Below, one piece after another: positions 15,227-33,287 of a stretch of 64,000 bases of DNA. This DNA is from a virus (lineage: Duplodnaviria > Heunggongvirae > Uroviricota > Caudoviricetes): the IMG/VR virus record IMGVR_UViG_3300029543_000199. One strand, given 5' to 3'. The position numbers and the translations under genes are program-made. The notes below the pieces were generated by a model. The model saw nothing but the letters and a program-made list of their open reading frames with translations. It was not told where the DNA came from and searched no databases. Within the stretch, counting starts at the first letter, position 1. Each line of letters starts with the position of its first letter.

Positions 15227-15269
15227 CATGGTGGCTGAAATCAAAAGGATTATTGGATAGGAGTTAAAG

Positions 15270-15551: not shown

Positions 15552-15560
15552 GAGGCATTT

Positions 15561-16151: not shown

Positions 16152-16365
16152 TCCCGCCACCATTTATGGTGGCGATAAGCTTTGAAAACGGAGGTGTTTC
16201 TATGGAATTGACGGTTAGGTTTTTAGTAAGAGAAACAGGTGTAGTAGTTGACAAACGCTTTGATAGCTATATCGCTTGCAGGAATTTCGTGAATCGTTGC
16301 AGGCATTCAAGAAAGGTTCAGTTGATATTTTACCCTACATTCAGGGATTAAGGAGATATGGGAAT

Positions 16366-17159: not shown

Positions 17160-17162
17160 TTT

Positions 17163-17777: not shown

Positions 17778-17830
17778 CTCAAGCCGACGAACTATCGTCG
17801 GTATGCTTACTCATGCTCGGCTTCCGGGAT
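17776..17830 (+). repeat. 53-nt conserved element, copy A (AACTCAAGCCGACGAACTATCGTCGGTATGCTTACTCATGCTCGGCTTCCGGG)
   Basis: Identical to copy B at 18612-18666. Begins at a stop codon. Contains hairpin CCGACGA-ACTA-TCGTCGG and outer pairing AAGCCGA/TCGGCTT. Confidence 0.7.
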
Positions 17831-17898
17831 GCCAACCCAAGCGTAAGCGGATAACGCTAACGGAGTAAATATATCAGAGAAAAAAGGAGATAAGAATT

Positions 17899-18288
17899 AT
17901 GGCAAAAGTAAAAACAATGGGACAGGCAATCGTAGTAGTATCTGAGGTAAAACTTGATGACATCAAGAAGATTGAGAAGTATCGTCCGGAAGCACTGGTT
18001 CTTAAAGGTGGCGAAGATGGTAAAGAGGAAATCTTCAGAATTGGTACAGGAGCTGGAAAGATCAATACATACGGAGCAAGCTTCGGCGAGGCAACCCGTG
18101 ATGATGAGAAGCTGGCTACTATCACAATGACAACAAACTACGACGGAGATGACATTAAAGGATTCATCGCTGATGAGCTTGGTGCAGCTTTGACAAACCT
18201 CGGAAAACTGGAAAAAACAATCCCGGCTGTTATTGATTCTATTGACAAGGAAAGAACAGCTATCATGAATGGCATCACAGTTGCCTAA
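17899..18288 (+). CDS. Hypothetical protein, probably highly expressed
   Basis: 129 aa, strong RBS AAAAAGGAGATAAGAATTATG, own terminator downstream. Confidence 0.6.
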   Translation: MAKVKTMGQAIVVVSEVKLDDIKKIEKYRPEALVLKGGEDGKEEIFRIGTGAGKINTYGASFGEATRDDEKLATITMTTNYDGDDIKGFIADELGAALTNLGKLEKTIPAVIDSIDKERTAIMNGITVA

Positions 18289-18300
18289 TCCAGCAACTTT

Positions 18301-18330
18301 GGCTACCGCAATTAAGCGGTAGCCTTTTTA
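18301..18330 (+). terminator. Rho-independent terminator
   Basis: GGCTACCGC-AATTAA-GCGGTAGCC-TTTTT. Confidence 0.7.
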
Positions 18331-18383
18331 AAACTGAATATGGAACAAATACATATTATATAAGAAGAAAAGGAGATTTAACC

Positions 18384-18611
18384 ATGATTAAAGTTACAGT
18401 AGGAAACAACGTAAAAAGAAATAGCGTAATCGTAGATGAGGCAGTAACACTGAGATCAGTTCTTGAGGAAAACGACATTGACTACACAAGAGGAACAATG
18501 CATCTGGATGGTTCTACACTGCAGCCTGGTGATATGGACAAATCATTCGAGGAGATGGGAATCAAAGACAAATGCTTCCTGCTGAATGTAGTAAAAGCTG
18601 ACAATGCGTAA
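18384..18611 (+). CDS. Small hypothetical protein (75 aa)
   Basis: RBS AAAAGGAGATTTAACCATG; MIKVTVGNNVKRNSVIVDEAVTLRSVLEENDID... has beta-grasp-like alternation but no C-terminal GG. Confidence 0.55.
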   Translation: MIKVTVGNNVKRNSVIVDEAVTLRSVLEENDIDYTRGTMHLDGSTLQPGDMDKSFEEMGIKDKCFLLNVVKADNA

Positions 18612-18666
18612 ATAACTCAAGCCGACGAACTATCGTCGGTATGCTTACTCATGCTCGGCTTCCGGG
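18612..18666 (+). repeat. 53-nt conserved element, copy B
   Basis: Identical to 17776-17830; followed directly by the terminator. Confidence 0.7.
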
Positions 18667-18688
18667 GAGTTAATTCTCCCCGGTTTTA
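18662..18688 (+). terminator. Rho-independent terminator
   Basis: CCGGGGAG-TTAATT-CTCCCCGG-TTTT. Confidence 0.7.
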
Positions 18689-18712
18689 AAAGTAAATAAC
18701 GGAGGCGTCACG

Positions 18713-19354
18713 ATGGCAAAGAAGAAAAACAACTTTTATGCGGTGAAACAAGGAAAGAATCCAGGGATATATAAAACATGGGATGAGTGCAAGGCGCAGG
18801 TTGAAGGCTTCAGTGGCGCTTTATACAAAGGATTCTCAACCCGCAAAGAGGCTGAGATTTACTTGAGTGGAAATGTCGAACCTGTCATAGAGAGCGATAA
18901 GAGCAAGGAAGCGGACATTACCATTTATGTAGATGGAAGCTTTGATGTGGCAACAAATGTTTACGGATACGGCTGTGTTGTAATTAAAAAGGACGGTTCG
19001 ATTGGACAGTATTATGGGGCAGGAAACAATCCGGAATGTGTGTTGCTGAGGAATGTCGCGGGGGAAATGCTCGCGGCTATGAGTGCTGTAAGATATGCAA
19101 TCAGAAGCGGATGTAAATCTGTAAATATTTGCTATGACTATAGCGGTATTGAAATGTGGGCTATCGGAGCATGGAAAGCAAATAACGATTTGACATTAAA
19201 ATACTCAACGTCAATGAAGGAATGGCAGGATGAGATCGCAATATCGTTTCAAAAAGTAGCTGCTCATACAGGTGAAAAGTACAACGAAATGGTAGACAAG
19301 CTTGCGAAGTATGCGGTTAGTAATTTCTGCAAGGAAAACAAAAATAGGGAATGA
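18713..19354 (+). CDS. rnhA: Ribonuclease HI with an N-terminal RNA-DNA hybrid-binding domain
   Basis: N-terminus FYAVKQGKNPGIYKTWDECKAQVEGFSGALYKGFSTRKEAEIY (caulimovirus-VI / RNase H1 hybrid-binding-domain pattern). Catalytic segments IYVDGS, AGEMLAAMSA, ICYDYSGIE, VAAHTGEKYNEMVDKLAK. Confidence 0.75.
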   Translation: MAKKKNNFYAVKQGKNPGIYKTWDECKAQVEGFSGALYKGFSTRKEAEIYLSGNVEPVIESDKSKEADITIYVDGSFDVATNVYGYGCVVIKKDGSIGQYYGAGNNPECVLLRNVAGEMLAAMSAVRYAIRSGCKSVNICYDYSGIEMWAIGAWKANNDLTLKYSTSMKEWQDEIAISFQKVAAHTGEKYNEMVDKLAKYAVSNFCKENKNRE

Positions 19355-19498
19355 GGTGCGTTAAACGCTGATACCGGGTTCAACTCCCGGTTTCCCTTTA
19401 TCTCATAAAGAGAAATGAGATATGAGGATGCTGTCCAAGATGTAAGAATCAGTCGGCTTGTGGATTGCCGGTACAAATATGCTGAAAATCCACGACAC

Positions 19499-19572
19499 GG
19501 ATTGTTAGCTCAGTGGGTTAGAGCAGTCGGCTCATAACCGACCGGTCATCCGTTCGAGTCGGATACGATCCA
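19499..19572 (+). tRNA. tRNA-Met/Ile2 (anticodon CAT), elongator type
   Basis: GGATTGT-TA-GCTC-AGTGGGTTA-GAGC-A-GTCGG-CTCATAA-CCGAC-CGGTC-ATCCG-TTCGAGT-CGGAT-ACGATCC-A. G1-C72 paired. Confidence 0.8.
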
Positions 19573-19599
19573 TTAAACATTAGAAAAGGAGGAATCAAA

Positions 19600-21189
19600 A
19601 TGTTTAGACCAACTATTACAACCACACCATTGGTCACACAGACAGCAAATACATACTTTGCGAATATCAGAGGAGAAAACTTCAACCATGATGTTACATT
19701 TATCTCAACATTAAGAGCATTAGTAAGTCCAAGAATTGCAGACGGGGAATCGGTGTCCTTGTATTTTAGAGGTACATCATTCGATAAAGAAACTGTAGAA
19801 AGGAATCCGGATGGAGCTGTTCTTGATGCTATGTATAATTCAAGACAATATGAAGATGGGTCTATCGTCATTCATAATCTGTCTGGAAATGCACAGGGAA
19901 ATCTTGCATGTCTGAAATTGATTGAAAAAGCGTTCACAACAAACAATTCTCGTTATGAACGAATTGTCAAAGTAACAGAGTTTTTCAAGAAAACTTTTTA
20001 TGCTTTGTGTTATGTAAATCCTACAAATAAAAAGGTTGTCATATTTGTAGATAATCTCAATATTCGTAGAATGCACTATTTACAGTGTTCAATATTTGCA
20101 TTCTTACCTTGGTATTTTAACCCGGAGGCTGGAGTAACGGAAGATGAAATGGAATTGATCCAGTCTCTGAGAGAAACAACTCCAGAGCGGTATATGAATG
20201 CAATTTCAAAGATTGCTTCTGGATATGATTTCAGAGGAATGTTTATCAGACAGCAGTTGAAAGGGTTTGAAACCGCATACGAAGAACAACAGGTTAGGAT
20301 TGTACAGGAAAATATCAGCGATTACGTAGACCAGATTAGAGGATATAACAATAGTATCTCAACTGCACTGAACAGGAAGAGAGATGCTGAGATTAGACTG
20401 CTAGGTCTAAAGACAAAGATTGCTCAGATGGAAGGAGAGGATTCCGAAATTATGGAATACTTCCTGTGCAATCAGAAACTGGATCTTGAGTATGTCAGAG
20501 GATCAGAGATGACTTTTGTTGTTAAAGATTATCTGATGTACTTTGATGAGGATATGGCAAAGACAGTTATAGATAATAGAAGAAGCTATATCTATAGATA
20601 CATCGGAGATTCTATGGAAAAGGATGATGTCGAGAAGCTGATGTATGCGATCTTCATCGACCAGGCATTGAAATTAAGATTCTGCTGTGCATACCGTATC
20701 AGGCTAGGAGAAAGAGTGGATGGCTTACGGAATTATGATTACAACGAGAGCTACGAAACATATATTCCAAACCCGCATATTGACAGATACAGCTGTCTTG
20801 GAAATTACGAAAGAACGATGAATGAGAGACTGGCTGACAATGATGCAATCGGAGCTATCGAGCAATGTATCTCATCATGCAAGAGTTTGAATTTCGCTGA
20901 CAGTACAGTTATGGAAGTATTTATGGAACGCATGTGTGGAAGAAATGGATACAGACATAACAAATGTATCGAGCTTCCAGATGGCAGCATCGTTGATATG
21001 CGAGGGGCTATCAAGTGGATGAAAGAACAGGAAGCGGCAGAGCAGGTTAAGGAGTCTGAGCAGATCGAATCAACTGAGACAACTGCTAATCCAGATACTG
21101 TAACAGATGAAGAGACGGATACAGAAGCAGTAGACACAGAAGAAACTGAAACAGAGGATGATTTCCTTGAAGAAGACGATTTATTCTAA
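19600..21189 (+). CDS. Hypothetical protein (529 aa) with an acidic C-terminus
   Basis: Long ORF with RBS AAAGGAGGAATCAAAATG; no motif recognised. Confidence 0.6.
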   Translation: MFRPTITTTPLVTQTANTYFANIRGENFNHDVTFISTLRALVSPRIADGESVSLYFRGTSFDKETVERNPDGAVLDAMYNSRQYEDGSIVIHNLSGNAQGNLACLKLIEKAFTTNNSRYERIVKVTEFFKKTFYALCYVNPTNKKVVIFVDNLNIRRMHYLQCSIFAFLPWYFNPEAGVTEDEMELIQSLRETTPERYMNAISKIASGYDFRGMFIRQQLKGFETAYEEQQVRIVQENISDYVDQIRGYNNSISTALNRKRDAEIRLLGLKTKIAQMEGEDSEIMEYFLCNQKLDLEYVRGSEMTFVVKDYLMYFDEDMAKTVIDNRRSYIYRYIGDSMEKDDVEKLMYAIFIDQALKLRFCCAYRIRLGERVDGLRNYDYNESYETYIPNPHIDRYSCLGNYERTMNERLADNDAIGAIEQCISSCKSLNFADSTVMEVFMERMCGRNGYRHNKCIELPDGSIVDMRGAIKWMKEQEAAEQVKESEQIESTETTANPDTVTDEETDTEAVDTEETETEDDFLEEDDLF

Positions 21190-21201
21190 GGAGTACGAGA
21201 T

Positions 21202-22155
21202 ATGAGTAAAATGATAACATTGCCACAGGAAATCCTTAACCAGTACACACAGGAATTTTATGAAATCCTCCGCACTGGAAAGTTTTCTGATGGAAAAATA
21301 AATTTCACAAAGACATTAGGGACTGTTGATAGAAAAGCAACAGTCCTTTTTACTGAAATGGCATGGCAGAAAATGCAGACTCTTATTAGAGAATTTGATA
21401 AAGAAGTTGCATGGCATGGTGTGGCAGAACGATGCGAAGAAAAAGATACATATCTGATTTCGGATATATTGGTTTATCCGCAGGAAGTTACAGGTTCAAC
21501 CGTAACAACAGATCAGAATGAGTATGAGATGTGGTTGATGAAGCAGGAAGATGACGTATTCAACAACATTAGAATGCAGGGACATTCGCATGTAAATATG
21601 TCAACAAGTCCATCAAGTGTGGATTTGAATCTTTATGATGGAATTCTTAGCCAGCTGGACAGCGATATGTTTTATATCTTTATGATATACAACAAGCGAG
21701 GGGAGAAAACAGTAAAATTATATGATCTGAGAGAGAACATTCTTTTTGAAACGGCAGATGTTACAGTCGCCGTCAAAGAAGTCGGAGATTTGACAGGATT
21801 CCTTGAGGAAGCAAAAGAACTGGTTGTTACAAAAACATACAATTACGGCGCTGGGGTTGGAACTTATGGAAACTCTTATCCTGGATATCCAAGCTACGGC
21901 GGATATTCAGCGCAGAAAAAGGAAGAACCGAAAAAGGAGAACTCTAGCCTGGGAAAAACCAGTCCCCTTGTGCAGGGAAATAAAAGTGGCAAGAAGCGCA
22001 AGGGGAAACGTAAGAAAGGAAATAAATCTTCTGGTAAACAGATGAGCATGTCAGATTACGGATACCCTGGCTATTTAGATGACGACGATGATGTATACGG
22101 TGGATACAGTGAATTCCAGGATGAGTATTGGAGACAGAAATACGGATTTGAATAA
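21202..22155 (+). CDS. JAB/MPN (JAMM) metallopeptidase-domain protein with a low-complexity Gly/Tyr- and Lys-rich C-terminal half
   Basis: JAMM signature HSHVNMSTSPSSVD (H-x-H-x7-S-x2-D) with upstream Glu residues. Confidence 0.7.
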   Translation: MSKMITLPQEILNQYTQEFYEILRTGKFSDGKINFTKTLGTVDRKATVLFTEMAWQKMQTLIREFDKEVAWHGVAERCEEKDTYLISDILVYPQEVTGSTVTTDQNEYEMWLMKQEDDVFNNIRMQGHSHVNMSTSPSSVDLNLYDGILSQLDSDMFYIFMIYNKRGEKTVKLYDLRENILFETADVTVAVKEVGDLTGFLEEAKELVVTKTYNYGAGVGTYGNSYPGYPSYGGYSAQKKEEPKKENSSLGKTSPLVQGNKSGKKRKGKRKKGNKSSGKQMSMSDYGYPGYLDDDDDVYGGYSEFQDEYWRQKYGFE

Positions 22156-22171
22156 TAAGGAGATGAGATAA

Positions 22172-22651
22172 ATGACCAGAGATGAATTCATTCAGAATGT
22201 GACAACATGGAGTGAATTGAGAAGCTTCTGCTACGACTATGAGTGTTCGGTTTGTAGCGAAGTATATTCACAGGATGAATTAGATGACTATTTTAATGAG
22301 CGGCTTGTCGATATGGCGAGAGATGCAAGTGATTGGAGTGATCTTTTAGAATCCTTGGAAGATATTCCGACAGGAGCATCTTATTATATTAGAGATGATG
22401 ATGGAGATTTTTCAGAAGCAGATGAAAGTGATTTTGATGATTTAAAGGATGAGGTGCTTGAGTGGGCTGATTATGAGGAAGTATTTGACGATTGCGATGA
22501 AGATGAAGAAGACTACGATGACGAAGAAGAGCCGGAGCCATTCGTAGAAGAAGATCCAGACGATAGATATGAAGTGGGAAATGAAGAAATGTCTATCGCA
22601 GAGTTATTTACTGTACCACAAAACGGAAGCAGAGGAATTTACAACGTATAG
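22172..22651 (+). CDS. Hypothetical highly acidic protein
   Basis: 159 aa, D/E-rich; no E2-like HPN-Cys motif. Confidence 0.5.
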   Translation: MTRDEFIQNVTTWSELRSFCYDYECSVCSEVYSQDELDDYFNERLVDMARDASDWSDLLESLEDIPTGASYYIRDDDGDFSEADESDFDDLKDEVLEWADYEEVFDDCDEDEEDYDDEEEPEPFVEEDPDDRYEVGNEEMSIAELFTVPQNGSRGIYNV

Positions 22652-22660
22652 GAGGATATT

Positions 22661-23332
22661 ATGGATTTAAGTAAGAGTTATGAATTTTTCCAGCCAGAAA
22701 AAGATCAGGCAAGAATCCACATTGTAGGATGTGGATCTGTCGGTTCTACAGTAGCAGAGAACCTTGCAAGATGTGGTGTAACAAAGATGACTTTATGGGA
22801 TTTCGATAAAGTTGAACCACATAACATTGTAAATCAGATGTTCGACCAGAACGATGTTGGCAAACTCAAGGTCGAAGCATTAAAAGATATTCTGACAGAT
22901 ATCAATCCAGAAATTTCTGATCAGATTGAAATCAAACCGGAAGGATGGCAGGGAAAGCTGATGTCGGGATATATCTTCCTGTGTGTAGACAGCATTGAAC
23001 TGAGAAGAGAGATTGTTGAAAAACATTTTGACAGTCCATATGTAAAAGCGGTATTTGATTTTAGAACACTGCTTGAAAGCGCACAGCATTATGCAGCTGA
23101 CTGGTCTGATTCCAAAATGAAGGAAGATTTATTGAACTCGATGCAGTTCTCACATGATGAAGCTAAGGATGAGACACCAATATCCGCTTGTGGTGTTACA
23201 CTTGGTGTAGCGACAACAGTAAGATTGATTTCGGCTCTCGGTGTGAACAACTACATCAATTTCGTAAAAGGCGATGGAATCAAGAAAATGATTATTATGG
23301 ACGGGTTCAAATTTGACCTGTTGGCGTTTTAG
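22661..23332 (+). CDS. E1-like (ThiF/MoeB family) adenylyltransferase
   Basis: IHIVGCGSVGSTVAENLARCGVTKMTLWDFDKVEPHNIVNQ: nucleotide-binding GxGxxG plus DxD...NxxRQ-like segment. Confidence 0.7.
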   Translation: MDLSKSYEFFQPEKDQARIHIVGCGSVGSTVAENLARCGVTKMTLWDFDKVEPHNIVNQMFDQNDVGKLKVEALKDILTDINPEISDQIEIKPEGWQGKLMSGYIFLCVDSIELRREIVEKHFDSPYVKAVFDFRTLLESAQHYAADWSDSKMKEDLLNSMQFSHDEAKDETPISACGVTLGVATTVRLISALGVNNYINFVKGDGIKKMIIMDGFKFDLLAF

Positions 23333-23532: not shown

Positions 23533-23545
23533 TAAAAGTGAATGA

Positions 23546-23571
23546 ACCGCCACGTTGCGTGGCGGTTTTTA
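23546..23571 (+). terminator. Rho-independent terminator
   Basis: CCGCCACG-TTGC-GTGGCGG-TTTTT. Confidence 0.75.
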
Positions 23572-23575
23572 TAAA

Positions 23576-23847
23576 GAACATGCAATGATATTTATCTCTT
23601 TGAGATAGCTTTCAGCCGTTGGCGGAAGTAGCAACTTGATAGGGAATGCAACCCCGCCGGGATAGAAGGCAACGGAGGATGCGAGAGTTTCATGAAATTC
23701 CAGCAAAGGTTCCGAAGAAGATGAATCCCGGAACAGATAGGTCATAAGTACATGATAATCAATGGATTATACCAAGCAGAGACATGATCAAGATCAGGAT
23801 CATGCAGCACGGATACAACTAAGACATACATTAGATTGCAGTTCTTG
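23576..23847 (+). ncRNA. Retron-like noncoding element R1 (candidate msr-msd) immediately upstream of the reverse transcriptase
   Basis: ORF-free. Flanking inverted repeats GAACATGCAAT (23576-23586) / ATTGCAGTTC (23835-23844). Conserved block TTCAGCCGTTGGCGGAAGTAGCAACTTGATAGG. Member of a 5-copy family. Confidence 0.4.
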
Positions 23848-23859
23848 AAAGGAGAAAAT

Positions 23860-24999
23860 ATGTATTACATAACAGTAAAACAGCCACCATCATACCACCA
23901 GATGACTCTGGAAGAGTTCCTATTTGGATCTGGTTCTGGCGCACAGTTAATAAATGCAAATTTAACGAATACAAGGACGTATGAGGTTGAAGAAGTTAGT
24001 GATCGATTTCTTCAGCTTGTTGATATTGACAAGCTTATTGCAAAACTCGAATGGTTCAACGAAAGAACAGAATATTTAAGAGAGAAGCCACGGCATGAAT
24101 GGTACTATGAGTTCCATATTCCGAAAAAGAGTGGCGGACTTAGAAAGATTGACGCTCCGGAACCGGAACTCAAAGAAGCATTACGCACTCTGAAAAATAT
24201 ATTTGAGGTTGATTTCAAAGCGCTTTATCACACATCAGCATTCGCATATATACAAGGTAGAAGTACGTTAGATCTTTTGAAAAGGCATCAGGCGAATGAA
24301 AGTAAGTGGTTTGAGAAGTTAGACTTATCCAATTTCTTTGGAAGCACAACAATGGAATGGGTGCTGCATATGTTTTCGATGGTGTTCCCATTCTCGGAAG
24401 TAATGAAAGATGACAAAGGAAAAGAAGCACTTGCAAAGGCTCTTGAGCTTGGATTCTTGGATGGGGGACTTCCACAGGGAACTCCGTTGTCTCCAACCAT
24501 TACAAACATTATGATGATTCCGGTTGATTTTGAAGTTGCAAGAACACTCAGAGAATACAATCACCAGAGGTTTGTATATACAAGATATGCTGATGATTTC
24601 CAGATTTCATCTAAATATGGGTTTAGCTTTATGGAAATCCAGAATGTAATCGTATCAATACTGAATGATTTCGGAGCGCCGTTTACAATCAAGAAAGAGA
24701 AGACGAGATATGGATCGTCAGCGGGTCAGAACTGGAATCTTGGATTGATGCTCAACAAAGATAATGAAATCACGATAGGTCACAAAAAGAAAAGACAATT
24801 CCAGGCAATGCTTTCATCGTATGCTATGGATAGAAAGAATGGAATCGCCTGGGATAAAAGTGATATTCAAACGATGGACGGGTATAGAAACTATTACCGG
24901 ATGGTTGAGGGAGAAAAGATTGACGGAATCGTTAAACATCTCAGCGAGAAATTTGGTGTGGATATCGTGAAATCAATTAAAGAAGACCTCACAGCTTAG
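23860..24999 (+). CDS. Reverse transcriptase, retron-type (not DGR, not group II intron)
   Basis: Start at the ATG with RBS GAAAGGAGAAAATATG. Motifs FHIPKKSGGLRKIDAP, FAYIQGRS, LDLSNFFGS, LPQGTPLSP, FVYTRYADDF. Post-YADD NWNLGLMLN resembles the retron VTG segment. No maturase or endonuclease domain. Confidence 0.85.
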   Translation: MYYITVKQPPSYHQMTLEEFLFGSGSGAQLINANLTNTRTYEVEEVSDRFLQLVDIDKLIAKLEWFNERTEYLREKPRHEWYYEFHIPKKSGGLRKIDAPEPELKEALRTLKNIFEVDFKALYHTSAFAYIQGRSTLDLLKRHQANESKWFEKLDLSNFFGSTTMEWVLHMFSMVFPFSEVMKDDKGKEALAKALELGFLDGGLPQGTPLSPTITNIMMIPVDFEVARTLREYNHQRFVYTRYADDFQISSKYGFSFMEIQNVIVSILNDFGAPFTIKKEKTRYGSSAGQNWNLGLMLNKDNEITIGHKKKRQFQAMLSSYAMDRKNGIAWDKSDIQTMDGYRNYYRMVEGEKIDGIVKHLSEKFGVDIVKSIKEDLTA

Positions 25000-25043: not shown

Positions 25044-25439
25044 ATGATGGAAGAACGAAAGAAAATCTTGTCAATGTGGATTGGTAATAGAGTTAAAGAT
25101 AATGAAATCGCAAAATGCATGTTCGATATAACCGTTCCAAAACTTGAGGAGATGCTGTATGAGAATGAATATATCAAAGAAGTGTGTGCGATGCTGGATA
25201 AATACGGAATCAAGCACATGAAAGTTGATACCATTCCTGGATCGTTCAATTTAGACAGAGATTGGATAGAGACCGATTCATCAACTCCAATAGAGTGTGC
25301 AATCGAATATCCTGGAGCATACCCGATAAACTGGGATATAGAAGATGTAGTCATGTTAGAGAAAATGGATCAAAACGGAGACATTATCATTAGAGTAATG
25401 TGGATTACAGAAGATGGGAAATTCGTACAGAACCACTAA
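25044..25439 (+). CDS. Hypothetical protein adjacent to the RT (possible retron accessory protein)
   Basis: 131-aa ORF, no motif recognised. Confidence 0.5.
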   Translation: MMEERKKILSMWIGNRVKDNEIAKCMFDITVPKLEEMLYENEYIKEVCAMLDKYGIKHMKVDTIPGSFNLDRDWIETDSSTPIECAIEYPGAYPINWDIEDVVMLEKMDQNGDIIIRVMWITEDGKFVQNH

Positions 25440-25453
25440 GTGACAAATAATAA

Positions 25454-25702
25454 GCTATGCAATGAAATTACTGTTTTACAGTGCTTTTTGCTGTTAGCGA
25501 AAGTAACAACTCGATCAGGAAAGAAACATACCACCCTGCAGAAGACGGGTGCCTCCTTCCGGATCACCATCCAGGAACTGAAGACTCGAGAAGAAGCAAT
25601 ATTGATAATCAGGAACTTATACCAAATCAAACCCAGAAAGTTATCTCCAGAAGAAACTTCCAGGAAGCGATATACAGGTAAACATGCACTAGATTGCATA
25701 GC
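25454..25702 (+). ncRNA. Retron-like element R2a (first of a tandem pair)
   Basis: Inverted repeats GCTATGCAATG (25454-25464) / ATTGCATAGC (25693-25702). Conserved block TGCTGTTAGCGAAAGTAACAACTCGATCAGG. Confidence 0.35.
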
Positions 25703-25709
25703 AAATCAT

Positions 25710-25990
25710 AAATGTACAATGAAATTATATCCATTGGATATGCTTCTTGCCGTCGGCGGAAGTGACAACTTGATAGGGCAGAGAACCTACCCGAGAGCGC
25801 CAGAGGAGGAGCTGAGCACAGACTCATAAGGAACCTCATAACATAATAAATACAAACTGTCAACAGGATAACTAATTGAAATTCAATGAAACATAGAATC
25901 AAGGATACTCGAAATCCAAATCATCGCAGCATCGACATGCATAAATCAGATCCTGGATAAGCTCATCTGCACATATTAGATTGTACATTT
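25710..25990 (+). ncRNA. Retron-like element R2b (second of the tandem pair)
   Basis: Inverted repeats AAATGTACAAT (25710-25720) / ATTGTACATTT (25980-25990), 11/11. Conserved block TGCCGTCGGCGGAAGTGACAACTTGATAGGG. Confidence 0.35.
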
Positions 25991-26013
25991 AAACAAATTT
26001 AAGGAGGAAGAAT

Positions 26014-26472
26014 ATGTATTTTAACACTAGCATCAATTTGATAAAAGTACCAAATAGATTTAACCATTCAAAACCAAATGAAGACAAAATGGAGGCTTGT
26101 AGAGAGTTCTACCGGACGAACCATCGTCTTGACAGGGATATTGTAGTTGATGAAAATATGGTACTTAAAGACGGATATATCGGATATCTTGTCCTCATTG
26201 AAAACGAAGCCAAGGTTGTATGTGTTAAGCAGACAAATACAAGACAGGTCACACTGGTTTATGGAGTGCATCCTGGTGTTGATAAGGAATATCGCTGGAA
26301 GATGGTAGATGATACTGAAGGCTCAGAGAATCTTAAAATCGGATCTCATGCAATAGTCAGAACAACATTTGGAGATGTAGAAGTTACAGTTACAAAGATT
26401 GAGAAAATTACAAGATCTAAGCTAAAGACGATAGGGCATATAAAAAGAGTTGTTAAGTGCCTGCCGGAGTAA
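26014..26472 (+). CDS. Hypothetical protein
   Basis: 152-aa ORF, RBS AAGGAGGAAGAATATG. Confidence 0.55.
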   Translation: MYFNTSINLIKVPNRFNHSKPNEDKMEACREFYRTNHRLDRDIVVDENMVLKDGYIGYLVLIENEAKVVCVKQTNTRQVTLVYGVHPGVDKEYRWKMVDDTEGSENLKIGSHAIVRTTFGDVEVTVTKIEKITRSKLKTIGHIKRVVKCLPE

Positions 26473-26476
26473 CAGT

Positions 26477-26647
26477 ATGAGATGTATTTATTTGGATAAA
26501 AGAGACTTTCTGTCCAAAGAAGACATGCGAATACATACAGCATTTGTTTGCATGAACAAAGAATCTGATAAGTATAAAACATTTAGTATTGATAAGGCTT
26601 ATATTTGTGGAAATTGCCTACATCACACTAAAGAAAGGGAAAAGTAA
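26477..26647 (+). CDS. Small Cys-containing hypothetical protein
   Basis: Start at the internal ATG with RBS GGAGTAACAGTATG; C...CGNCLHH. Confidence 0.35.
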   Translation: MRCIYLDKRDFLSKEDMRIHTAFVCMNKESDKYKTFSIDKAYICGNCLHHTKEREK

Positions 26648-27210
26648 TGAATTTTTATATAGCAGATATGCATTTTGGTCACAAGAATATCATCCAGTAT
26701 GATAATAGACCGTTTGACTCAGTGGAGGAAATGGATAAGGCGTTGATCCAACTGTGGAATGAGACTGTCGGCAGTGACGATATAGTATATATCCTAGGAG
26801 ATTTTAGCTGGTACAAAGAAGATAAAACAGCCTTTATTCTCGGATGTTTAAAGGGGCATAAAGTTCTGGTAAAAGGAAATCATGACCATATTTCTCCAAA
26901 AGTTGCAAGAAATTTTGACAGAATCTGCGAGTATGCAGAAATTAAAGACGGAGATGAGAAGGTTATACTATCCCATTATCCGATACCATTTTGGAATGGA
27001 CAGCACAGGAATACAATACACCTGTATGGTCATGTTCATACATCAAGTCAGTACAATTACTGCCTGAATATTGAGAAAGAATTAAGACAGCTTCAGGGTA
27101 TTCCAATGAGGATGTTTAATGTTGGATGTATGGTAGAGTACATGAACTACATGCCGAGAACATTAAGCGAGATACTGAGGTGGAAAGGAGATAAGGATGG
27201 ACAGGAGTAA
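26647..27210 (+). CDS. Calcineurin-like metallophosphoesterase
   Basis: DMHFGH, ILGDFSWY, KGNHD, GHVH motifs. Confidence 0.7.
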   Translation: MNFYIADMHFGHKNIIQYDNRPFDSVEEMDKALIQLWNETVGSDDIVYILGDFSWYKEDKTAFILGCLKGHKVLVKGNHDHISPKVARNFDRICEYAEIKDGDEKVILSHYPIPFWNGQHRNTIHLYGHVHTSSQYNYCLNIEKELRQLQGIPMRMFNVGCMVEYMNYMPRTLSEILRWKGDKDGQE

Positions 27211-27505
27211 TTTTAATCCTCAAGTCGGAGATCTCGTAAGAGTTCGATTGTGGGAGGACATGGCAAAAGAGTTTGGTATTGATGAAGATGGTAATATACC
27301 ATGCAAATTCAGTTTCGTTGGTTATATGGAAAATATGTGCGGCGATGAATTTATGATTACGAAGATTATAGATGGAAATTACATCGGTCATCCAAAAGGA
27401 GGCGGCGTATCTATATCTATTGATATGCTCGAACCTGTAATTGAGGATGAAGTTGACGGGTCGGAAATTGATGATTTTCTAAGTGGAATTAAGATCAATA
27501 GTTAG
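27197..27505 (+). CDS. Hypothetical protein
   Basis: 102-aa ORF, overlaps the upstream gene by 14 nt. Confidence 0.5.
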   Translation: MDRSNFNPQVGDLVRVRLWEDMAKEFGIDEDGNIPCKFSFVGYMENMCGDEFMITKIIDGNYIGHPKGGGVSISIDMLEPVIEDEVDGSEIDDFLSGIKINS

Positions 27506-27514
27506 GAGGAAGGT

Positions 27515-27925
27515 ATGAAACTTATTATAGTTTCTGGACAAGAAGGGACAGATGTAGAATCACTGTTTGAGAAAGTTATATCTGAAAACGGATATGTGTA
27601 TCAATATGCTCCTAAAATGGTATTTCCAGAAAATTCGATGCTTTTACGACATCCGAGAGCTTTATATAATAATGTAAGAAAAGTTGTAAGGAAACATATA
27701 GAGAATGGTCAGGATTTGTTTGTTCTGACATTTTCTGATTATGCAATGTATGGTATCAGAGTAGAAATCAAGAAGAATGATTTTGAAGGGGCAATAGTAC
27801 ATCAATTAAAGAATGATGGAGAGGATATTATATCAGAAATGAATCCAGAGACGGCAAAATATGAATACGTTGATGGAATTTTTGATACTATAGACAAAGC
27901 TCTTAATGAACTACTTTGGGGATAA
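27515..27925 (+). CDS. Hypothetical protein
   Basis: 136-aa ORF, RBS AGGAGGAAGGTATG. Confidence 0.5.
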   Translation: MKLIIVSGQEGTDVESLFEKVISENGYVYQYAPKMVFPENSMLLRHPRALYNNVRKVVRKHIENGQDLFVLTFSDYAMYGIRVEIKKNDFEGAIVHQLKNDGEDIISEMNPETAKYEYVDGIFDTIDKALNELLWG

Positions 27926-27952
27926 GGTATTACTGCACATAGTGCATTAGTA

Positions 27953-28213
27953 TACTCACAATGAAAATGGATTGTTTTTAGCGAAAGTATTTACTACGAC
28001 AGCAATACATATTTACAATCACTCCTGCTGTTAGCGAGAGTTCGACAATGGTTCTTGCATCTCAAAACTTTGTACGTTTTCAAAATAAGATCATTTAACT
28101 GCGTTAAAGATCAAATTTTGAAAACGTACAGTTTTTCGATGGCACTTCCAGCATATGCTAATCTCTTAATTCGGACAACACGAACCAGAGATTACGCATA
28201 CGGATTGTGAGTA
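27953..28213 (+). ncRNA. Retron-like element R3
   Basis: Inverted repeats TACTCACAAT (27953-27962) / ATTGTGAGTA (28204-28213), 10/10. Two core-like blocks: TTTAGCGAAAGTATTTAC and CTGCTGTTAGCGAGAGTTCGACAATGG. Confidence 0.35.
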
Positions 28214-28234
28214 AAAAAGGAGGAATTTAATAAA

Positions 28235-29356
28235 ATGAAAGCAATTAACCGTGGTGACAACACATACGATATTTTTGATGACACAATGCAGGTGTTTGAA
28301 AAGTTGCCTGCTCAGCCATATATCGTCAGATTTTCAGAAATCAGAGGCTTCTTTTTGGAGAAATATAATGATATGGAAATCAAGGAGCCAAAAGTTTATG
28401 GTGTACATACAGAAAAAGTAAACAAAGTAATGAATATGTTTGAAAGGCAGGATAGAAATCTCGGAGTCATCCTTAGCGGAGACAAAGGAATCGGAAAATC
28501 TCTGTTTGCAAAGATGCTGTCGAACGCTGCGATTGAAAGAGGTATTCCAATGATTGTAGTTGACAGATATATTCCTGGCATCGCTTCTTATATAGAAGAT
28601 ATTGAACAGGAAATCATGGTTCTGTTTGATGAATTCGATAAAACATTCGGAGAGGTTAAGTCAAAGGCAGGAGAAGCGTCGCCACAAACAAATCTATTAT
28701 CTTTATTTGACGGGTTATCGTCAGGAAAGAAACTGTTTGTCGTGACTTGCAATGAGCTGTATAAACTGAATGAGTATCTGATTAACAGACCGGGGCGGTT
28801 CCATTATCATTTTAGATTTGAGTATCCGTCCGCAAATGAGATCCGAGAATATCTGACAGATAAATTGCAGCAAGAATACCAGAAAGAAATTGATAATGTT
28901 ATTTCTTTCTCAAATAAAATCAGCTTAAACTATGACTGCTTGCGCGCTATCGCAACTGAGCTGAATACCGGATTGACATTCTGTGATGCGATTAAGGATC
29001 TGAATATCGTAAACACAGAGCAGCAGTCATATAACCTTATGCTGAGATTCAAGAATGGAGTCAGCTTCAAAGCGAAGGATATCAGTATGGATATGTTTGG
29101 TGACGATGATGATAAAAATGTGTATATGTACGATAATAAAGGTCGAAACAATGTAGACATTACGTTCAATCCTTGCAATGCAGTCTATGATACAGGAAAG
29201 TTCGCACATGTAATACCTGCTGATGCGATTAAAGTTGAATATTATTTTGGAGACAGTGAAGATGAAAAGGCTATGGAAACTGCATTAAAAGACGCAGGAG
29301 TGGAATGCCTTGTAATCAATAGAAAGGTATCAAGAAATATTCATTACAATGTTTAA
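28235..29356 (+). CDS. AAA+ ATPase
   Basis: Walker A GDKGIGKS; Walker B VLFDEFDK. Confidence 0.7.
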   Translation: MKAINRGDNTYDIFDDTMQVFEKLPAQPYIVRFSEIRGFFLEKYNDMEIKEPKVYGVHTEKVNKVMNMFERQDRNLGVILSGDKGIGKSLFAKMLSNAAIERGIPMIVVDRYIPGIASYIEDIEQEIMVLFDEFDKTFGEVKSKAGEASPQTNLLSLFDGLSSGKKLFVVTCNELYKLNEYLINRPGRFHYHFRFEYPSANEIREYLTDKLQQEYQKEIDNVISFSNKISLNYDCLRAIATELNTGLTFCDAIKDLNIVNTEQQSYNLMLRFKNGVSFKAKDISMDMFGDDDDKNVYMYDNKGRNNVDITFNPCNAVYDTGKFAHVIPADAIKVEYYFGDSEDEKAMETALKDAGVECLVINRKVSRNIHYNV

Positions 29357-29367
29357 GGTGGTAAAAG

Positions 29368-30654
29368 ATGGGGTATAAAGATATCTATAAGTTGCAATCC
29401 ATTACTGGTGCAAATGCAAAGTGCGAGTTCATTAAAGCACATCGCGATGATACATACTTTAAAAGATTTCTATATTTTGCACTTAACCCAATGCTTACAT
29501 ACAACATATCGAAAAAATCAACAGATAAGCTGATGGCTGAAGAAAATTTCGACGGTCAAAAGCTTATCTTTTTTAATGACATTTTTGAATGTTGTGAGCA
29601 TTTGTCAAGGCTCAGAGGTATGGATGATGCAACATTAAGACAGGTAAAGATGCTTCTGAATGTGAAGTATCCGGAAAGGGATGAGAGAGATCTGTATATA
29701 CAGCTGCTTTCAAAGAAAGTTCGCCTTGGAATTGCAGCTAAGACGATCAATAAGATCATTCCGAATCTTATCCCGGAATGGGAAGTGCAGCAAGCTTATA
29801 CCGTTGAGAAGTATCCGTTGAAAGAAGGAACGGAATTCTGGCTTACACAAAAGCTTAATGGAGCAAGAGCAACTTTGTATGAGGGACAGCTGCTCGCAAG
29901 AAGCGGTATGCCGTATAAAGGACTGGAACATATAACTGATGCATTGTCGTGGTTGAGAGTTGCAGGGTTTGTTGCTGACGGAGAATTGACACTGAAAGAT
30001 AAAGGCGACCTGAGTGACAATGAAGCATTCAGAGTTTCTACTGGAATATTGAACTCCGATAATGTTAATAAAACGGTGATTTGCTATACGATTTTTGACA
30101 TGGTTCCGGTAAAAGATTTCGATGCATTAAAGCCGCAGGTCACATACAGATATCGCAGGGATATTCTTAATCAGTTTGCAGAGAGAATTGCAGACACAGA
30201 TGGTGCTGTAAAGGTTCTCCCAGTTCTATATCATGGCACAGATCAGTCCAAAATCGAAGAGTTATTAGAACAGATGGTTCGAGAAGACAAGGAAGGATTG
30301 ATGATTAACACAGATGCTCCATACCGAAGAACAAGGCATAAAGGAATTCTGAAAGTAAAGAGATTCTACACGATGGATTTACCGATTATCCGTTGTGAGG
30401 AAGGAACTGGTAGATTATCCGGTACATTAGGAGCGTTTGTTCTGAAGTACAAAGAGAACGAGGTAAAAGTAGGATCGGGATTCACAGACGAGCAGAGAGA
30501 GCAGTTCTGGAATAACCGTGATGATATGGAAGGATTACTTTGCGAAGTGAAGTACAAAGAAATATCTCAGGACAAGGGAACTGGGCTTGAAAGTTTACAG
30601 TTCCCGGTATTTGTCGGAATCAGAACAGATAAAACAGAAGTGAGCTACAGTTAG
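29368..30654 (+). CDS. Nucleotidyltransferase of the ATP-dependent DNA/RNA ligase superfamily
   Basis: Motif I KLNGAR (Asn where Asp is usual), III FVADGELTL, IV EGLMIN, V ILKVK, OB-fold segment VKVGSGFTDEQREQFW. Confidence 0.55.
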   Translation: MGYKDIYKLQSITGANAKCEFIKAHRDDTYFKRFLYFALNPMLTYNISKKSTDKLMAEENFDGQKLIFFNDIFECCEHLSRLRGMDDATLRQVKMLLNVKYPERDERDLYIQLLSKKVRLGIAAKTINKIIPNLIPEWEVQQAYTVEKYPLKEGTEFWLTQKLNGARATLYEGQLLARSGMPYKGLEHITDALSWLRVAGFVADGELTLKDKGDLSDNEAFRVSTGILNSDNVNKTVICYTIFDMVPVKDFDALKPQVTYRYRRDILNQFAERIADTDGAVKVLPVLYHGTDQSKIEELLEQMVREDKEGLMINTDAPYRRTRHKGILKVKRFYTMDLPIIRCEEGTGRLSGTLGAFVLKYKENEVKVGSGFTDEQREQFWNNRDDMEGLLCEVKYKEISQDKGTGLESLQFPVFVGIRTDKTEVSYS

Positions 30655-30666
30655 GAGGTAAATTAC

Positions 30667-31122
30667 ATGTTATTGCATAAGCAAAAGTCGCTATATCATC
30701 TTAGCGATGATGAGAAGTCAGATTTAATGGATATGATCCTTGTTGCAATCAACGAAGTGACAAAGTTCAATCCGAATGAATCTGACGGTAGCCGGTATGA
30801 TTATGGTGTTGATTTCTCCAACATGCCACCAATCAATCCATATGTGGTATCTAATGTATTGCAGGATTTAGGGTACGAAGAGGGAGATGTAGACACTAAC
30901 GGCTGGGAGAATGATTATTGGCAGTCGTTTACTCATCCGGATAAAAAGAAATTTCCTCCAATGCAGATGAGCGGCACAAGTTGGATTCATGAATGTCACT
31001 TACACGGAGAAGAAGACGAGGATGCTTTATATCAGCACCTTGAAGATGATGAGGAATATGCAGATCGAATCAAACATGGCTTGGAGTTAATCGGAAAGGC
31101 AATGAATCGTGCAGACGGGTAG
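30667..31122 (+). CDS. Hypothetical protein
   Basis: 151-aa ORF. Confidence 0.5.
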   Translation: MLLHKQKSLYHLSDDEKSDLMDMILVAINEVTKFNPNESDGSRYDYGVDFSNMPPINPYVVSNVLQDLGYEEGDVDTNGWENDYWQSFTHPDKKKFPPMQMSGTSWIHECHLHGEEDEDALYQHLEDDEEYADRIKHGLELIGKAMNRADG

Positions 31123-31227
31123 TAAAGGACGAAAAGAGTACGCTGATAGAGTCATTAAAATTAAGTCTCCAAACAATGAAGCGTATACGAAAGCAGTAGA
31201 AGATATGGCAGAGCAAAAAAAAAGGAG

Positions 31228-31416
31228 GTGAGGTCTATGGTCGGCATTGTGATTTTTACCCTATTGGTATGCATAACAACTGCAACTTGCGTGCTCGGAT
31301 GTAAATATTTGGACAAGCAGGGTGATTTATCGTATGCAAAATTTAAGGAATTAAATCAAAAGCTCGATAATTTGGAAAAGATGTTAAGCGACAAAGGACA
31401 TGGAGGTAGGGGATAA
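31228..31416 (+). CDS. Small membrane protein
   Basis: 62 aa, TM helix IVIFTLLVCITTATCVLG, RBS AAAGGAGGTGAGGTCTATG. Confidence 0.45.
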   Translation: MRSMVGIVIFTLLVCITTATCVLGCKYLDKQGDLSYAKFKELNQKLDNLEKMLSDKGHGGRG

Positions 31417-31586
31417 TGAATCCAGTATTTTGGTTTTTGATAATTGTTGCTGCCTTTTGTTTATGGCTTGCGATTTCCTTCATCTTTATTCCTTTAGGAG
31501 GTATTCTCCTGAAAATGATGAAGAGAATTTTTAATATTATCAATTATGAGGAAAAAGAATCAGAGTCAAAGGAGAAAGAAGAATGA
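31416..31586 (+). CDS. Small membrane protein (56 aa), below the ORF-track cut-off
   Basis: ATG overlaps the upstream stop (GGATAATGA); MNPVFWFLIIVAAFCLWLAISFIFIPLGGILLKMMKRIFNIINYEEKESESKEKEE; its stop overlaps the next start (ATGA). Confidence 0.4.
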   Translation: MNPVFWFLIIVAAFCLWLAISFIFIPLGGILLKMMKRIFNIINYEEKESESKEKEE

Positions 31587-32455
31587 AGAAAAAAGGTTTA
31601 ATCGGAGCTATTGTTACAGCTATCGTTATGATTACGGTGGTTGTAGGAGTAATTATGTGCGTTGAAAAGATTCCGGTTGGATATGAGGGTGTTGTGTACA
31701 ACATCAACGGCGGCGTATCCGGTGAGACTCTCAGCACAGGCTGGAACATAGTATCTCCGACTAAGAAAGTAAAGAATTTCACGATCAGTAATGAGCAAAT
31801 TATCCTGAGTAAAGATAGTCGCGAGGGCAGCGAAGGAGACGATTCATTCAAAGTGTCAACATCTGATGATGCTATGCTCGCAATTAGTTTCCAGATGTCT
31901 TACAGATTCAATCCGGATACACTCGTGGATACATATAAGAAGTTCAAAGGTATGGACGGAGAGGCTATTGTAAATAGCAGAGTAAAAACTGTTCTGAAGT
32001 CAAAGGTGTCTGAGGTTACAACAGACTATTCAATGATGGATATCTATTCCGGCAATCGTAGTGAAATCAACAATAAGATTACAGAATATTTGAATAATGC
32101 ATTTGAAAAGGAATATGGCATTCAGGTATTAGATGCAAGTATTATTGATGTTCATCCAGATGATAAGCTGAAAGAGTCGATTGACAACAGGGTAACGGCA
32201 TTACAACAGAAACAGCAGGCACAGGTTGAACAGGAGACTGCAAAAGTACAGGCTGAGACAGCACTTATTAAGGCGCAGAATGAAGCCGATATCAAAGTGA
32301 CTGCCGCAAAAGCAGAGGCTGAGGCGAATCAGTTAAAATCAGCAAGCCTTACACCGGAACTTATTCAGATGACAGAGGCAGAAGCTCGTCTGAAGCATGG
32401 ATGGGTTACGGTACAGGGAGCAGATGCAACGGTTGTAGATGCGAACGGTAAATAA
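31583..32455 (+). CDS. SPFH/Band-7 (stomatin/prohibitin/flotillin-like) membrane protein
   Basis: N-terminal TM; SPFH-like core ISFQMSYRFNP...IQVLDASIIDVHP followed by an Ala/Gln/Glu coiled coil. Confidence 0.65.
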   Translation: MKKKGLIGAIVTAIVMITVVVGVIMCVEKIPVGYEGVVYNINGGVSGETLSTGWNIVSPTKKVKNFTISNEQIILSKDSREGSEGDDSFKVSTSDDAMLAISFQMSYRFNPDTLVDTYKKFKGMDGEAIVNSRVKTVLKSKVSEVTTDYSMMDIYSGNRSEINNKITEYLNNAFEKEYGIQVLDASIIDVHPDDKLKESIDNRVTALQQKQQAQVEQETAKVQAETALIKAQNEADIKVTAAKAEAEANQLKSASLTPELIQMTEAEARLKHGWVTVQGADATVVDANGK

Positions 32456-32543
32456 TTAAAAAGAATATCGGCTACTATATATAGAAAATTTTCCTCAAGA
32501 AATCGCAAGTATTAGTAGCCGATAACTAAAGAGAGGTGGATTT

Positions 32544-32843
32544 ATGAATGATGCAATGAAATTTATATATCGGATTACCTCTGGAGGAGCAAATCATGGC
32601 GTGATCGAATCATTTTCTGGTCGAAACAGCTACTGGTTTGCTTCTATTTTATTCAGAAGATTTATTCGGAACAACGCAGCAATCATGTATGATCCAAAAA
32701 ATAATTGTTTCGGAACAAGAATTGGAGGGAAAGTATACGATGTGACTGGAGATGTCACGGAAAATCACAAATGGATTTCATGGGTAGAATACTCAAATAA
32801 GAAGTCCAAAGATCAAGTCACGAAAGAAGATATTATGTTTTAA
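32544..32843 (+). CDS. Hypothetical protein
   Basis: 99-aa ORF with RBS. Confidence 0.45.
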   Translation: MNDAMKFIYRITSGGANHGVIESFSGRNSYWFASILFRRFIRNNAAIMYDPKNNCFGTRIGGKVYDVTGDVTENHKWISWVEYSNKKSKDQVTKEDIMF

Positions 32844-32845
32844 AC

Positions 32846-33092
32846 CGTAATGATATTACTGCTTTGCAGTGCTTCTTGCCGTCGGCGGAAGTGACAACTT
32901 GATGAGGAAAATAACCGTCACCAAGCAGCTGGAAGACGCGGCAGCACGAGATGCTGAGCACGCCGTAAACCCAGAAATAATTTCAGGATATACATAACCC
33001 ACTGATAATCAATACCTCCATAAGAGGAGGAACCTGAAGATCAAAGATCTACTGGGCGTGATTACACGGGCTACCGTACATTAGATTACAGT
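32846..33092 (+). ncRNA. Retron-like element R4
   Basis: 5' block CCGTAATGATATTACTG...CTTCTTGCCGTCGGCGGAAGTGACAACTTGATGAGG (identical over 31 nt to R2b); 3' block ACATTAGATTACAG. Confidence 0.35.
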
Positions 33093-33287
33093 TTAAACAG
33101 GAAAGGAAGTGTTATGAAATGGCTGAAAACACCTGATTGTAATGACAACTGTTTGTAAGGCAGAACAAGATGATTAAGAAAGAAATTGATCGACTTGGAG
33201 ATGTTACAGATGAAGACATGGCTATGCACAGGGAATTTTATAAGCTTGGATGTGAATATCTGAATAAGTTGAAAGAGGATAGATAGG

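Follow-up and report, generated by a model that had tools for sequence, protein, structure and literature searches.

Retrons are currently understood as bacterial abortive-infection systems that consist of one reverse transcriptase (RT), one non-coding RNA (ncRNA) and one effector. Mestre et al. reportedly divided them in 2020 into types I-XIII, with Ec83 and Ec78 falling in type I-A and St85 and Ec86 in type II-A. The stretch of DNA considered here, referred to as the window, is 64 kb of phage DNA (IMG/VR record IMGVR_UViG_3300029543_000199) that has an RT gene at 23860-24999 and, between 23.5 and 33.1 kb, five elements that all lie on the + strand and are here named R1, R2a, R2b, R3 and R4. 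It is probable that these five elements are retron-type msr-msd ncRNAs that all belong to this single RT, and thus form a natural array of templates within a phage.

The use of several templates by one RT is feasible because engineered retron arrays, the so-called multitrons, do work, with one RT serving several ncRNAs in one cell (PMC10370050). As in multitrons, the window has one RT and several ncRNAs that share an msr handle and differ in their msd, with the RT-DNAs demonstrated there and predicted here. Multitrons are however synthetic and made for multiplexed editing, whereas the array described here is natural, is conserved in a phage family and contains two classes of ncRNA. In Retron-Vpa2, a type VI retron, the template RNA and a downstream open reading frame (ORF) are joined on one transcript (10.1101/2025.10.22.683967). 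The window is similar in that template adjoins downstream ORF, and both are non-canonical with respect to the model in which multicopy single-stranded DNA (msDNA) acts as an antitoxin. It differs in having no helix-turn-helix or small toxin partner, no general predicted occlusion of the ribosome-binding site (RBS), several templates and downstream genes that are not conserved. The defence-associated RTs DRT2 and DRT9 also combine a single RT with a structured ncRNA next to it, the template part of which is no long hairpin, but the RT in the window is far closer to retron RTs, there is no stop-free template, the RNA is closed by a helix of two end arms (a1/a2) with a junction G, and there is more than one ncRNA. 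An earlier note on this DNA, made from the sequence alone, had called an RT with several ncRNAs undescribed; in the literature that was searched only the engineered arrays have this arrangement and no retron forms part of the core of a phage family, although an earlier description of either is not fully excluded.

The five elements

The boundaries of the elements were set by their terminal inverted repeats, which form the closing helix a1/a2, and by this measure each is 250-285 nt long and on the same strand as the RT gene. The positions agree to within a few bases with those first proposed in the earlier note, and the inverted repeats reported there for R3 (10/10) and R2b (11/11) are exact, with 11-12 bp in R2b. 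The remaining arms pair at 10/10 in R2a, at 9/10 in R4 and in R1 as 6 bp, a bulge and a further 3 bp. The 5' block GCYGTYRGCGRRAGT is present in five exact copies and in one copy with two mismatches at 27974 inside R3, with a seventh match, also with two mismatches, found outside the elements on the minus strand at 20890. This gives seven matches in all compared to 0.85 expected, and seven or more were obtained in 0 of 100 shuffles. The identity of 31 nt between R2b and R4 that had been noted before was conservative, as it extends over 34 nt.

It is apparent that the five elements are of two kinds. A repeat finder groups R1, R2a, R2b and R4 over 47 nt, and a covariance model (CM) run over the whole window returns exactly these four canonical copies, termed type A, and no further ones. 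The view that all five are paralogous copies of one element stands for these four and needs correcting for R3, which falls into another class, type B. No match to Rfam release 15 was obtained for any of the five elements, either at gathering score or at E<=5.

Four of the elements (R1, R2b, R3 and R4) end 10-20 nt before a Shine-Dalgarno (SD) sequence, with the end of R1 17 nt before the RT start codon, so that the statement that every copy sits in a gap ending at the RBS of a downstream gene is correct for these and fails for R2a, which ends at R2b. The gaps had also been described as free of ORFs; mechanical ORFs are in fact present, for example at 25440-25829 (+) and 25436-25699 (-), but open frames in the gaps are no longer than those in shuffles. 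R1 is preceded by a G+C hairpin and a run of T at 23545-23574. Both R2a and R4 have orthologues in the related loci L013-L018, with those of R2a at the equivalent position.

The 5' end of a type-A element starts with a copy-specific a1 ending in YAAY, which is followed by an invariant G, a short A/U linker and a first hairpin, H1, that is free in sequence. The second hairpin, H2, has an outer stem of five pairs (CUUCN with NGAAG) and an inner stem of three pairs that is capped by a loop of three bases and has a single bulged base on its 5' side. H2 is followed by the conserved U-RRCAAYUUGAK, an interior of 155-190 nt, the motif YAU-R-YAG and finally a2.

Of these parts R3 retains a1, the junction G and H2, as well as the motif in front of a2, where it has CGG instead of YAG. 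It is placed in a second ncRNA class because it has no H1, has a conserved leader of its own (UAGAUUGAUUG ... AUACAUA-N7-AAUCRC) and contains a hairpin of 38 bp at 28063-28138, with similarly long and stable hairpins in its relatives. Type-B elements occur in 17 or more related loci, with a1/a2 arms that vary by phage yet remain complementary, being ACTCACAAT/ATTGTGAGT in R3 of the window, ACCCCAAT/ATTGGGGT in L026, TCCCCGTAT/ATACGGGGA in L073 and GGCGGACGTAT/ATACGTCCGCC in L075. Upstream of its complete H2, at 27974-27988, R3 also has a remnant that is like the 3' half of H2 (GTTTTTAGCGAAAGT), which suggests that the type-B element in the clade of the window arose by fusion with, or decay of, a neighbouring type-A-like copy.

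Covariation of the helices

Relatives of the elements were collected from IMG/VR (80 loci, with RT identities of 39-100%), from pattern scans and from GTDB genomes (41 loci). In an alignment made with MAFFT from 57 diverse 5' modules, which is not fitted to any structure, 87.5% of the cells of H1 and H2 are paired compared to 70.0% after column shuffling, changes on both sides occur at 12 of the 14 pairs, and sliding the registers by 1-3 columns reduces pairing to 39-49%. The structure-fitted CM alignment of 102 distinct sequences gives 90.9% against 68.8%, with changes on both sides at 13/14 pairs. H2 alone is paired at 97.6-98.4%, the lower value being that on the MAFFT alignment.

The closing helix behaves in the same manner. 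Across the spliced junctions of 69 distinct elements a1 and a2 are 85.0% paired, compared to 63.6% after shuffling and 29-40% when the registers are slid, with the caveat that the a2 site was itself chosen by complementarity and that this inflates the percentage. A null of mismatched partners controls for this effect: when arms are swapped between elements and the same finder is applied, a perfect 10/10 pairing arises in 2.2% of trials as opposed to 45% for the true partners, and an earlier version of the test that used contiguous stems gave the same picture. Double changes are found at 11 of the 12 pairs of the helix, the pair next to the junction is U-A in 51 elements, C-G in 13 and U-G in 5, and neither the G that follows a1 nor the G that precedes a2 varies in any of the 69. 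The earlier note had allowed that the putative stems might lack compensatory changes; these are abundant in H1, H2 and a1/a2.

A further pair of positions outside the helices also varies together. Covariation is seen between the base that lies 3 nt past the invariant G and the base in the centre of the H2 loop (25467 with 25494 in the window), with a mutual information of 0.68 and 92% Watson-Crick combinations, the pair being A-U in the clade of the window and U-A in clades with a CCAAAGG loop. The linker base and the H2 loop may form a tertiary contact, but this is kept as a mere lead because the signal follows clade boundaries.

The interiors

That conserved ends enclose diverged centres, as was recognised from the window alone, is borne out in the relatives. 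In pairs of phages with RT genes that are 79-82% identical at the DNA level the orthologous 5' modules are 84-92% identical and the interiors 55-61%, the latter to be compared with 51.3 +/- 2.0% for shuffled sequences and 51-59% for the third codon positions of the RT. As their divergence matches that of the third codon positions, the interiors drift at about the neutral rate; the proposal that they evolve faster than neutral was rejected, because these positions are equally diverged. Interiors of paralogous copies are at random level to each other and have no similarity elsewhere in the window, and there is no open-frame signal in them on either strand, with frame lengths equal to those in shuffles. 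What the interiors do keep is their length and composition, with 17-19% T compared to 27.6% in the window. A candidate interior motif, TGATAATCAAT, was rejected as a conserved feature as it is confined to the clade of the window (12-13 of 83 elements).

The reverse transcriptase

On the evidence of its sequence and predicted fold, the RT is of the retron type. Its gene begins with the RBS AAGGAGAA and an ATG at 23860, and the product has the catalytic motif YADD and an N-terminal extension of ~75 aa. Whilst Pfam returns simply RVT_1 (2.9e-20), the best 25 matches in PADLOC are all retron RT models, headed by RT_II-A (9.4e-47), and strong matches among PDB sequences are likewise all retron RTs, with Ec83 (5.5e-22) first and then Ec78, an RT of the St85 family, Ec67, Kva2 and Ec86. 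An AlphaFold model of the RT, which is of low confidence (pLDDT 65), has retron RTs as its first 11 fold matches, with DRT9 and abortive infection (Abi) RTs ranking lower. The best model in NCBIfam is also of a retron, retron_St85 (4.9e-50), whereas the Drt2 hidden Markov model (HMM) reaches only 8.4e-9, 35 bits against a cutoff of 390. The motifs VTG in region Y and NAxxH in region X are signatures of retron RTs, in which the G and the H are the most conserved residues (PMC7736814). These two residues are kept in the RT of the window and are invariant, or nearly so, in the alignment of its family.

The phages in INPHARED gave no DNA match, and the sole full-length protein match is an unannotated faecal contig (41% identical). 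Retron-type RTs that are ~30% identical to that of the window are encoded by the jumbo Staphylococcus phages vB_StaM_SA1, Madawaska and LY01, which have genomes of ~260 kb.

Distribution of the elements and their link to the RT

In ~120 related loci the RT is as a rule surrounded by several copies on its own strand. The CM gives 193 matches in 81 sources, and an HMM (nhmmer) built from these finds 197 elements, of which 197/197 are on the strand of the RT and clustered around it. Copy number was counted in 47 loci that have full 10-kb flanks, the most distant clade being left out. There are three type-A copies in 27 of these loci, four in 8 and five in 1, with a usual layout of one copy before the RT and two after it; a copy lies <1 kb upstream of the RT in 43/47, at least one lies just after it in 41/47 and at least two in 31/47. 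The 41 independent GTDB loci, nearly all from metagenome-assembled genomes (MAGs; one record has no MAG label), have the same layout as the phage loci, with 72 CM matches that are all on the RT strand. The bins from which they come are mostly gut Lachnospiraceae, Oscillospiraceae, Ruminococcus, Roseburia and Acutalibacteraceae, with a few Bacteroidota.

A clade in which the RT is 40% identical to that of the window has a different RNA, with a hairpin CUCUU-CGGUUAUAUCC-AAGAG, in an unchanged layout of one copy before the RT, one right after it and one 3 kb on, each with its own complementary end arms. Such a change of RNA sequence along with the RT, with the layout kept, is as expected if RNA and RT co-evolve. 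Two exact-pattern scans for the core motif across all 2.9 million IMG/VR contigs matched 8 and 16 contigs, and the RT is present in 8/8 and 16/16 of these. The earlier note had considered that identical elements might be abundant in genomes without an RT; this is not the case in IMG/VR, since every contig matched carries the RT.

A possible mechanism

The five elements are read as templates of the RT because they share a common handle, because their geometry is that of priming from a 2'-OH and because they co-occur exclusively with a retron-type RT. Each RNA closes on itself via its copy-specific a1/a2 helix, the invariant G after a1 has the position of the branching G of retrons, the invariant G before a2 is where the template would start, and the handle is made up of H2, joined in type A by H1, and of the conserved stretch ACAAYTTGA. 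It is proposed that the RT would bind to the H2 handle and its flanks on each RNA and prime from the 2'-OH of the invariant junction G. DNA synthesis would start opposite the G that immediately precedes a2 and proceed through the interior towards the handle, and the template would be trimmed by RNase H1, either that of the host or the phage's own enzyme encoded at 18713. In this way several branched RNA-DNA molecules that resemble msDNA would arise, with a common RNA part and differing DNA parts. Four of these, from the type-A elements, are predicted to be ~150-190 nt long, copied from a U-poor template, weakly structured and unconstrained in sequence, and the one type-B product would be rich in hairpins. 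It may be speculated that the multiple copies serve dosage and that their divergent interiors limit recombination between the repeats.

In many respects this resembles a classical retron. The locus has an RT of the retron clade, a contiguous ncRNA directly upstream of it on the same strand, terminal a1/a2 repeats, a conserved junction G, one to three msr hairpins and a variable template region, features which are known from retrons (PMC7736814), and R3 also has the long msd hairpin. In other respects it differs, as there are five ncRNAs for the RT instead of one, and as the system lies in the conserved backbone of a ~115-kb phage rather than in a bacterial defence island or as a moron of a temperate phage.

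There are several points that weigh against the five elements being templates of a retron. No member of the known retron effector families was found among the neighbours of the RT by Pfam, PADLOC and neighbour searches, and an associated effector is part of the usual description. Classical msd regions form a hairpin of 10-50 bp (PMC7736814), but such a stem-loop is present in type B only; the long, U-poor interiors of type A do not fold significantly (mean z = -0.64, with 6% below -2). The St85 match of the RT, at 170 bits against a cutoff of 235, is below cutoff, and in alignment with Ec83 its VTG is NLG and its NAKIH is LLKRH, so that both signature motifs, VTG and NAxxH, are degenerate. To these may be added the choice of a2 by complementarity, and the fact that synthesis of cDNA from any of the five copies is a prediction. 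On its sequence features the system is best classed as a divergent lineage of retrons which is new in its architecture and would work like a retron.

Alternative explanations

It is possible, but unlikely, that only R1 and perhaps R3 act as templates, and that the other copies are leader RNAs which bind the RT and so couple the expression of the downstream genes to the RT or its cDNA. Such leaders would be similar to the RNA of type VI retrons, a hybrid that has a template and a translationally repressed ORF on one transcript (10.1101/2025.10.22.683967), and for some of the copies this may hold. The placing of four copies just before an SD sequence fits this, in R1 pairing is predicted between the SD of the RT gene and the 5' arm of H1, and the anti-SD-like CCTCC is found in 42% of type-A interiors compared to 21% in shuffles, an enrichment that may be without significance. 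However, the SD is free in the predicted folds of R2b, R3 and R4, and sequestration of the RBS as a general function was rejected as it is predicted for R1 only. There is also no gene after R2a, tandem pairs without an intervening gene being the norm (31/47 loci), the genes downstream of the elements vary across the phage family, and the features of the priming type, namely a1/a2, the invariant G and the YAG that precedes a2, show conservation in every copy and not in the RT-proximal one alone. It is improbable, too, that the RT copies these RNAs by a mechanism other than that of retrons, such as priming from a 3'-OH or a protein, template jumping or rolling circle as in DRT2 and DRT9, with the end helix acting as a scaffold. 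The degenerate VTG and NAxxH motifs, the N-terminal extension, the unstructured type-A templates and the lower-ranking DRT9 and Abi RTs in the list of fold matches are all compatible with this, yet the best matches in both sequence and fold are retron RTs, with Drt2 at 8.4e-9 and retron St85 at 4.9e-50, the interiors lack an open-frame signal on both strands and the invariant G is exactly at the a1 junction, as it is in retrons. A coding template of the Neo type, as in DRT2, was ruled out, given that open frames equal those of shuffles on both strands and that the Drt2 score is weak.

That the elements are structured phage RNAs independent of the RT, be it processing or stability elements or small RNAs, and merely co-located with it, is very improbable. 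The lack of an Rfam match would allow it, and since the phages are related and syntenic some of the co-occurrence could be due to shared ancestry. This has to be set against a motif that is exclusive to RT-carrying contigs in the two IMG/VR-wide scans, copies that are tightly grouped to either side of the RT and without exception on its strand, the architecture of a retron ncRNA, and the clade with a 40%-identical RT, in which the RNA changed along with the RT and the layout was kept. The remaining suggestions, namely a mobile repeat similar to a miniature inverted-repeat transposable element (MITE), promoter or RBS cassettes, or the template and variable repeats of a diversity-generating retroelement (DGR), can be regarded as effectively refuted. 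The elements are indeed repeated, intergenic and bounded by terminal inverted repeats, but a MITE is ruled out by their presence on one strand (197/197), their orthologous positions, their clustering at the RT, and arms that are copy-specific and covary as RNA helices. It had been raised that the conserved blocks could be promoter or RBS signals; a sigma-70 scan found sites to be rarer than in shuffles, with no site on the blocks, the sole promoter-like site inside any element being TTTACT-18-TACAAT at 27990-28019 in R3, and modules of this kind were rejected. A DGR is ruled out because the RT is not of the DGR type and the window has no pair of template and variable repeats.

Genomic neighbourhood

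The coordinates of the elements and of the main genes around them are given in Table 1. The order of the backbone is the same in 54/54 full related loci, with a 529-aa protein, a JAB/MPN protein and a ThiF/E1-like protein followed by the ncRNA-RT module. The JAB/MPN-type protein has an invariant HSHx7SxxD motif, the ThiF/E1-like protein resembles the E1 domain of Cap2 from CBASS, and the 529-aa protein could not be assigned to a family, its confident model (pLDDT 85) having no fold match in the PDB. It is possible that together these three could form a ubiquitin-like conjugation module. The block is directly preceded by the tRNA-Met gene of the window.

Table 1. Position of the ncRNA elements, their parts and the neighbouring genes in the window
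Feature	Position	Strand	Description
R1	23577-23843	+	Type A, directly upstream of the RT; CM match 71 bits; a1 23577-23586; invariant G 23587; H1 23593-23607; H2 23609-23628; conserved AGCAACTTGATAGGG 23630-23644; ACATTAG 23828-23834; a2 23835-23843
RT gene	23860-24999	+	Retron-type reverse transcriptase, 379 aa
R2a	25454-25702	+	Type A, first of tandem pair; CM match 77.6 bits; a1 25454-25463; G 25464; H1 25470-25482; H2 25484-25503; GCACTAG 25686-25692; a2 25693-25702
R2b	25710-25990	+	Type A, second of tandem pair; CM match 77.8 bits; a1 25710-25720; G 25721; H1 25727-25741; H2 25743-25762; ATATTAG 25973-25979; a2 25980-25990; followed by RBS and ATG of gene at 26014
R3	27953-28213	+	Type B (helix boundaries; type-B class in relatives); a1 27953-27962; G 27963; partial H2-like remnant 27974-27988; leader ATACATA..AATCAC 28005-28022; H2 28021-28041; 38-bp msd-like hairpin 28063-28138; CATACGG 28197-28203; a2 28204-28213
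R4	32842-33094	+	Type A; CM match 73.4 bits; a1 32842-32851; G 32852; H1 32858-32870; H2 32872-32891; ACATTAG 33078-33084; a2 33085-33094
Block upstream of R1/RT	19600-23332		529-aa, 317-aa JAB/MPN-type and 223-aa ThiF/E1-like proteins
Phage RNase H1	18713-19354	+	Pfam Cauli_VI 2.7e-21, RNase_H 1e-10

The phage also has its own RNase H1, with an N-terminal hybrid-binding domain and an RNase H domain, ~4.5 kb upstream of the RT. RNase H1 is needed for the maturation of retron msDNA (PMC8989520), and it is possible that the phage enzyme is a processing partner of the RT system, an association that is inferred. The gene lies within 10 kb of the RT in 6/54 loci only, which are the closest relatives of the window. 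Upstream of it a 57-nt sequence with the internal hairpin GCCGACGA...TCGTCGG is present as a perfect direct repeat, at 17772-17828 and, 838 nt further on, at 18610-18666, the latter copy stopping 46 nt short of the RNase H1 gene.

In the distant clade, the region of L082 downstream of the RT (12900-20200) has many paralogous small genes with the motif GD.V.IR.WDDM..EFG, each with a repeated leader, and a 102-aa ORF of the window at 27197-27505 belongs to the same family. Other RNA features of the window are a phage-encoded tmRNA at 46712-47042 (Rfam 91 bits), for which ARAGORN gives the tag peptide ANRQMLAVA, and a full-length RAGATH-16 RNA at 13460-13532 (89.4 bits against a gathering score of 65.6). 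About 500 nt upstream of the latter, at 12798-12977, a 58-nt unit with GGGTTTCCCCGTGGGTTACGGTT occurs in three perfect head-to-tail copies, with a related single copy a further 1.4 kb upstream at 11397-11423. There are three tRNA genes, tRNA-Tyr at 4157-4240 (-), tRNA-Met at 19499-19572 (+) and tRNA-Gln at 60808-60880 (+).

Possible role and significance

With no known effector adjacent to the RT and with the module in the conserved backbone of the phage, a role that serves the phage is favoured over one in toxin-antitoxin defence. One candidate role is the production of abundant single-stranded DNA (ssDNA) that titrates or decoys host factors which bind or sense ssDNA. A wider proposal can be put forward tentatively, though we hold it to be somewhat doubtful: that widespread phages of gut Clostridia use an effector-less retron as a viral tool, in which 3-5 templates give rise to a mixture of abundant ssDNAs whose sequence is free to drift whilst their length, their U-poor composition and the RNA handle are conserved. 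Such a system would be the first multitron known from nature as well as the first pro-viral retron. The ssDNAs might then be decoys or sponges for host proteins that bind or sense ssDNA or for host nucleases, or they might serve the DNA metabolism of the phage.

If the conserved multi-template array does exist in the core genomes of many gut phages without a known effector, as proposed, then retron reverse transcription has been recruited by viruses and multiplexed templating exists in nature. The compact handle of H2 and its flanks, with its rich covariation, the two classes of template for the same RT and ~100 natural variants make the recognition of RNA by the RT directly testable, and a tolerance of arbitrary unstructured templates of ~150-190 nt would bear on retron-based genome editing. 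For the phages themselves, it would explain several hundred bases per genome of formerly unannotatable intergenic sequence in an abundant group.

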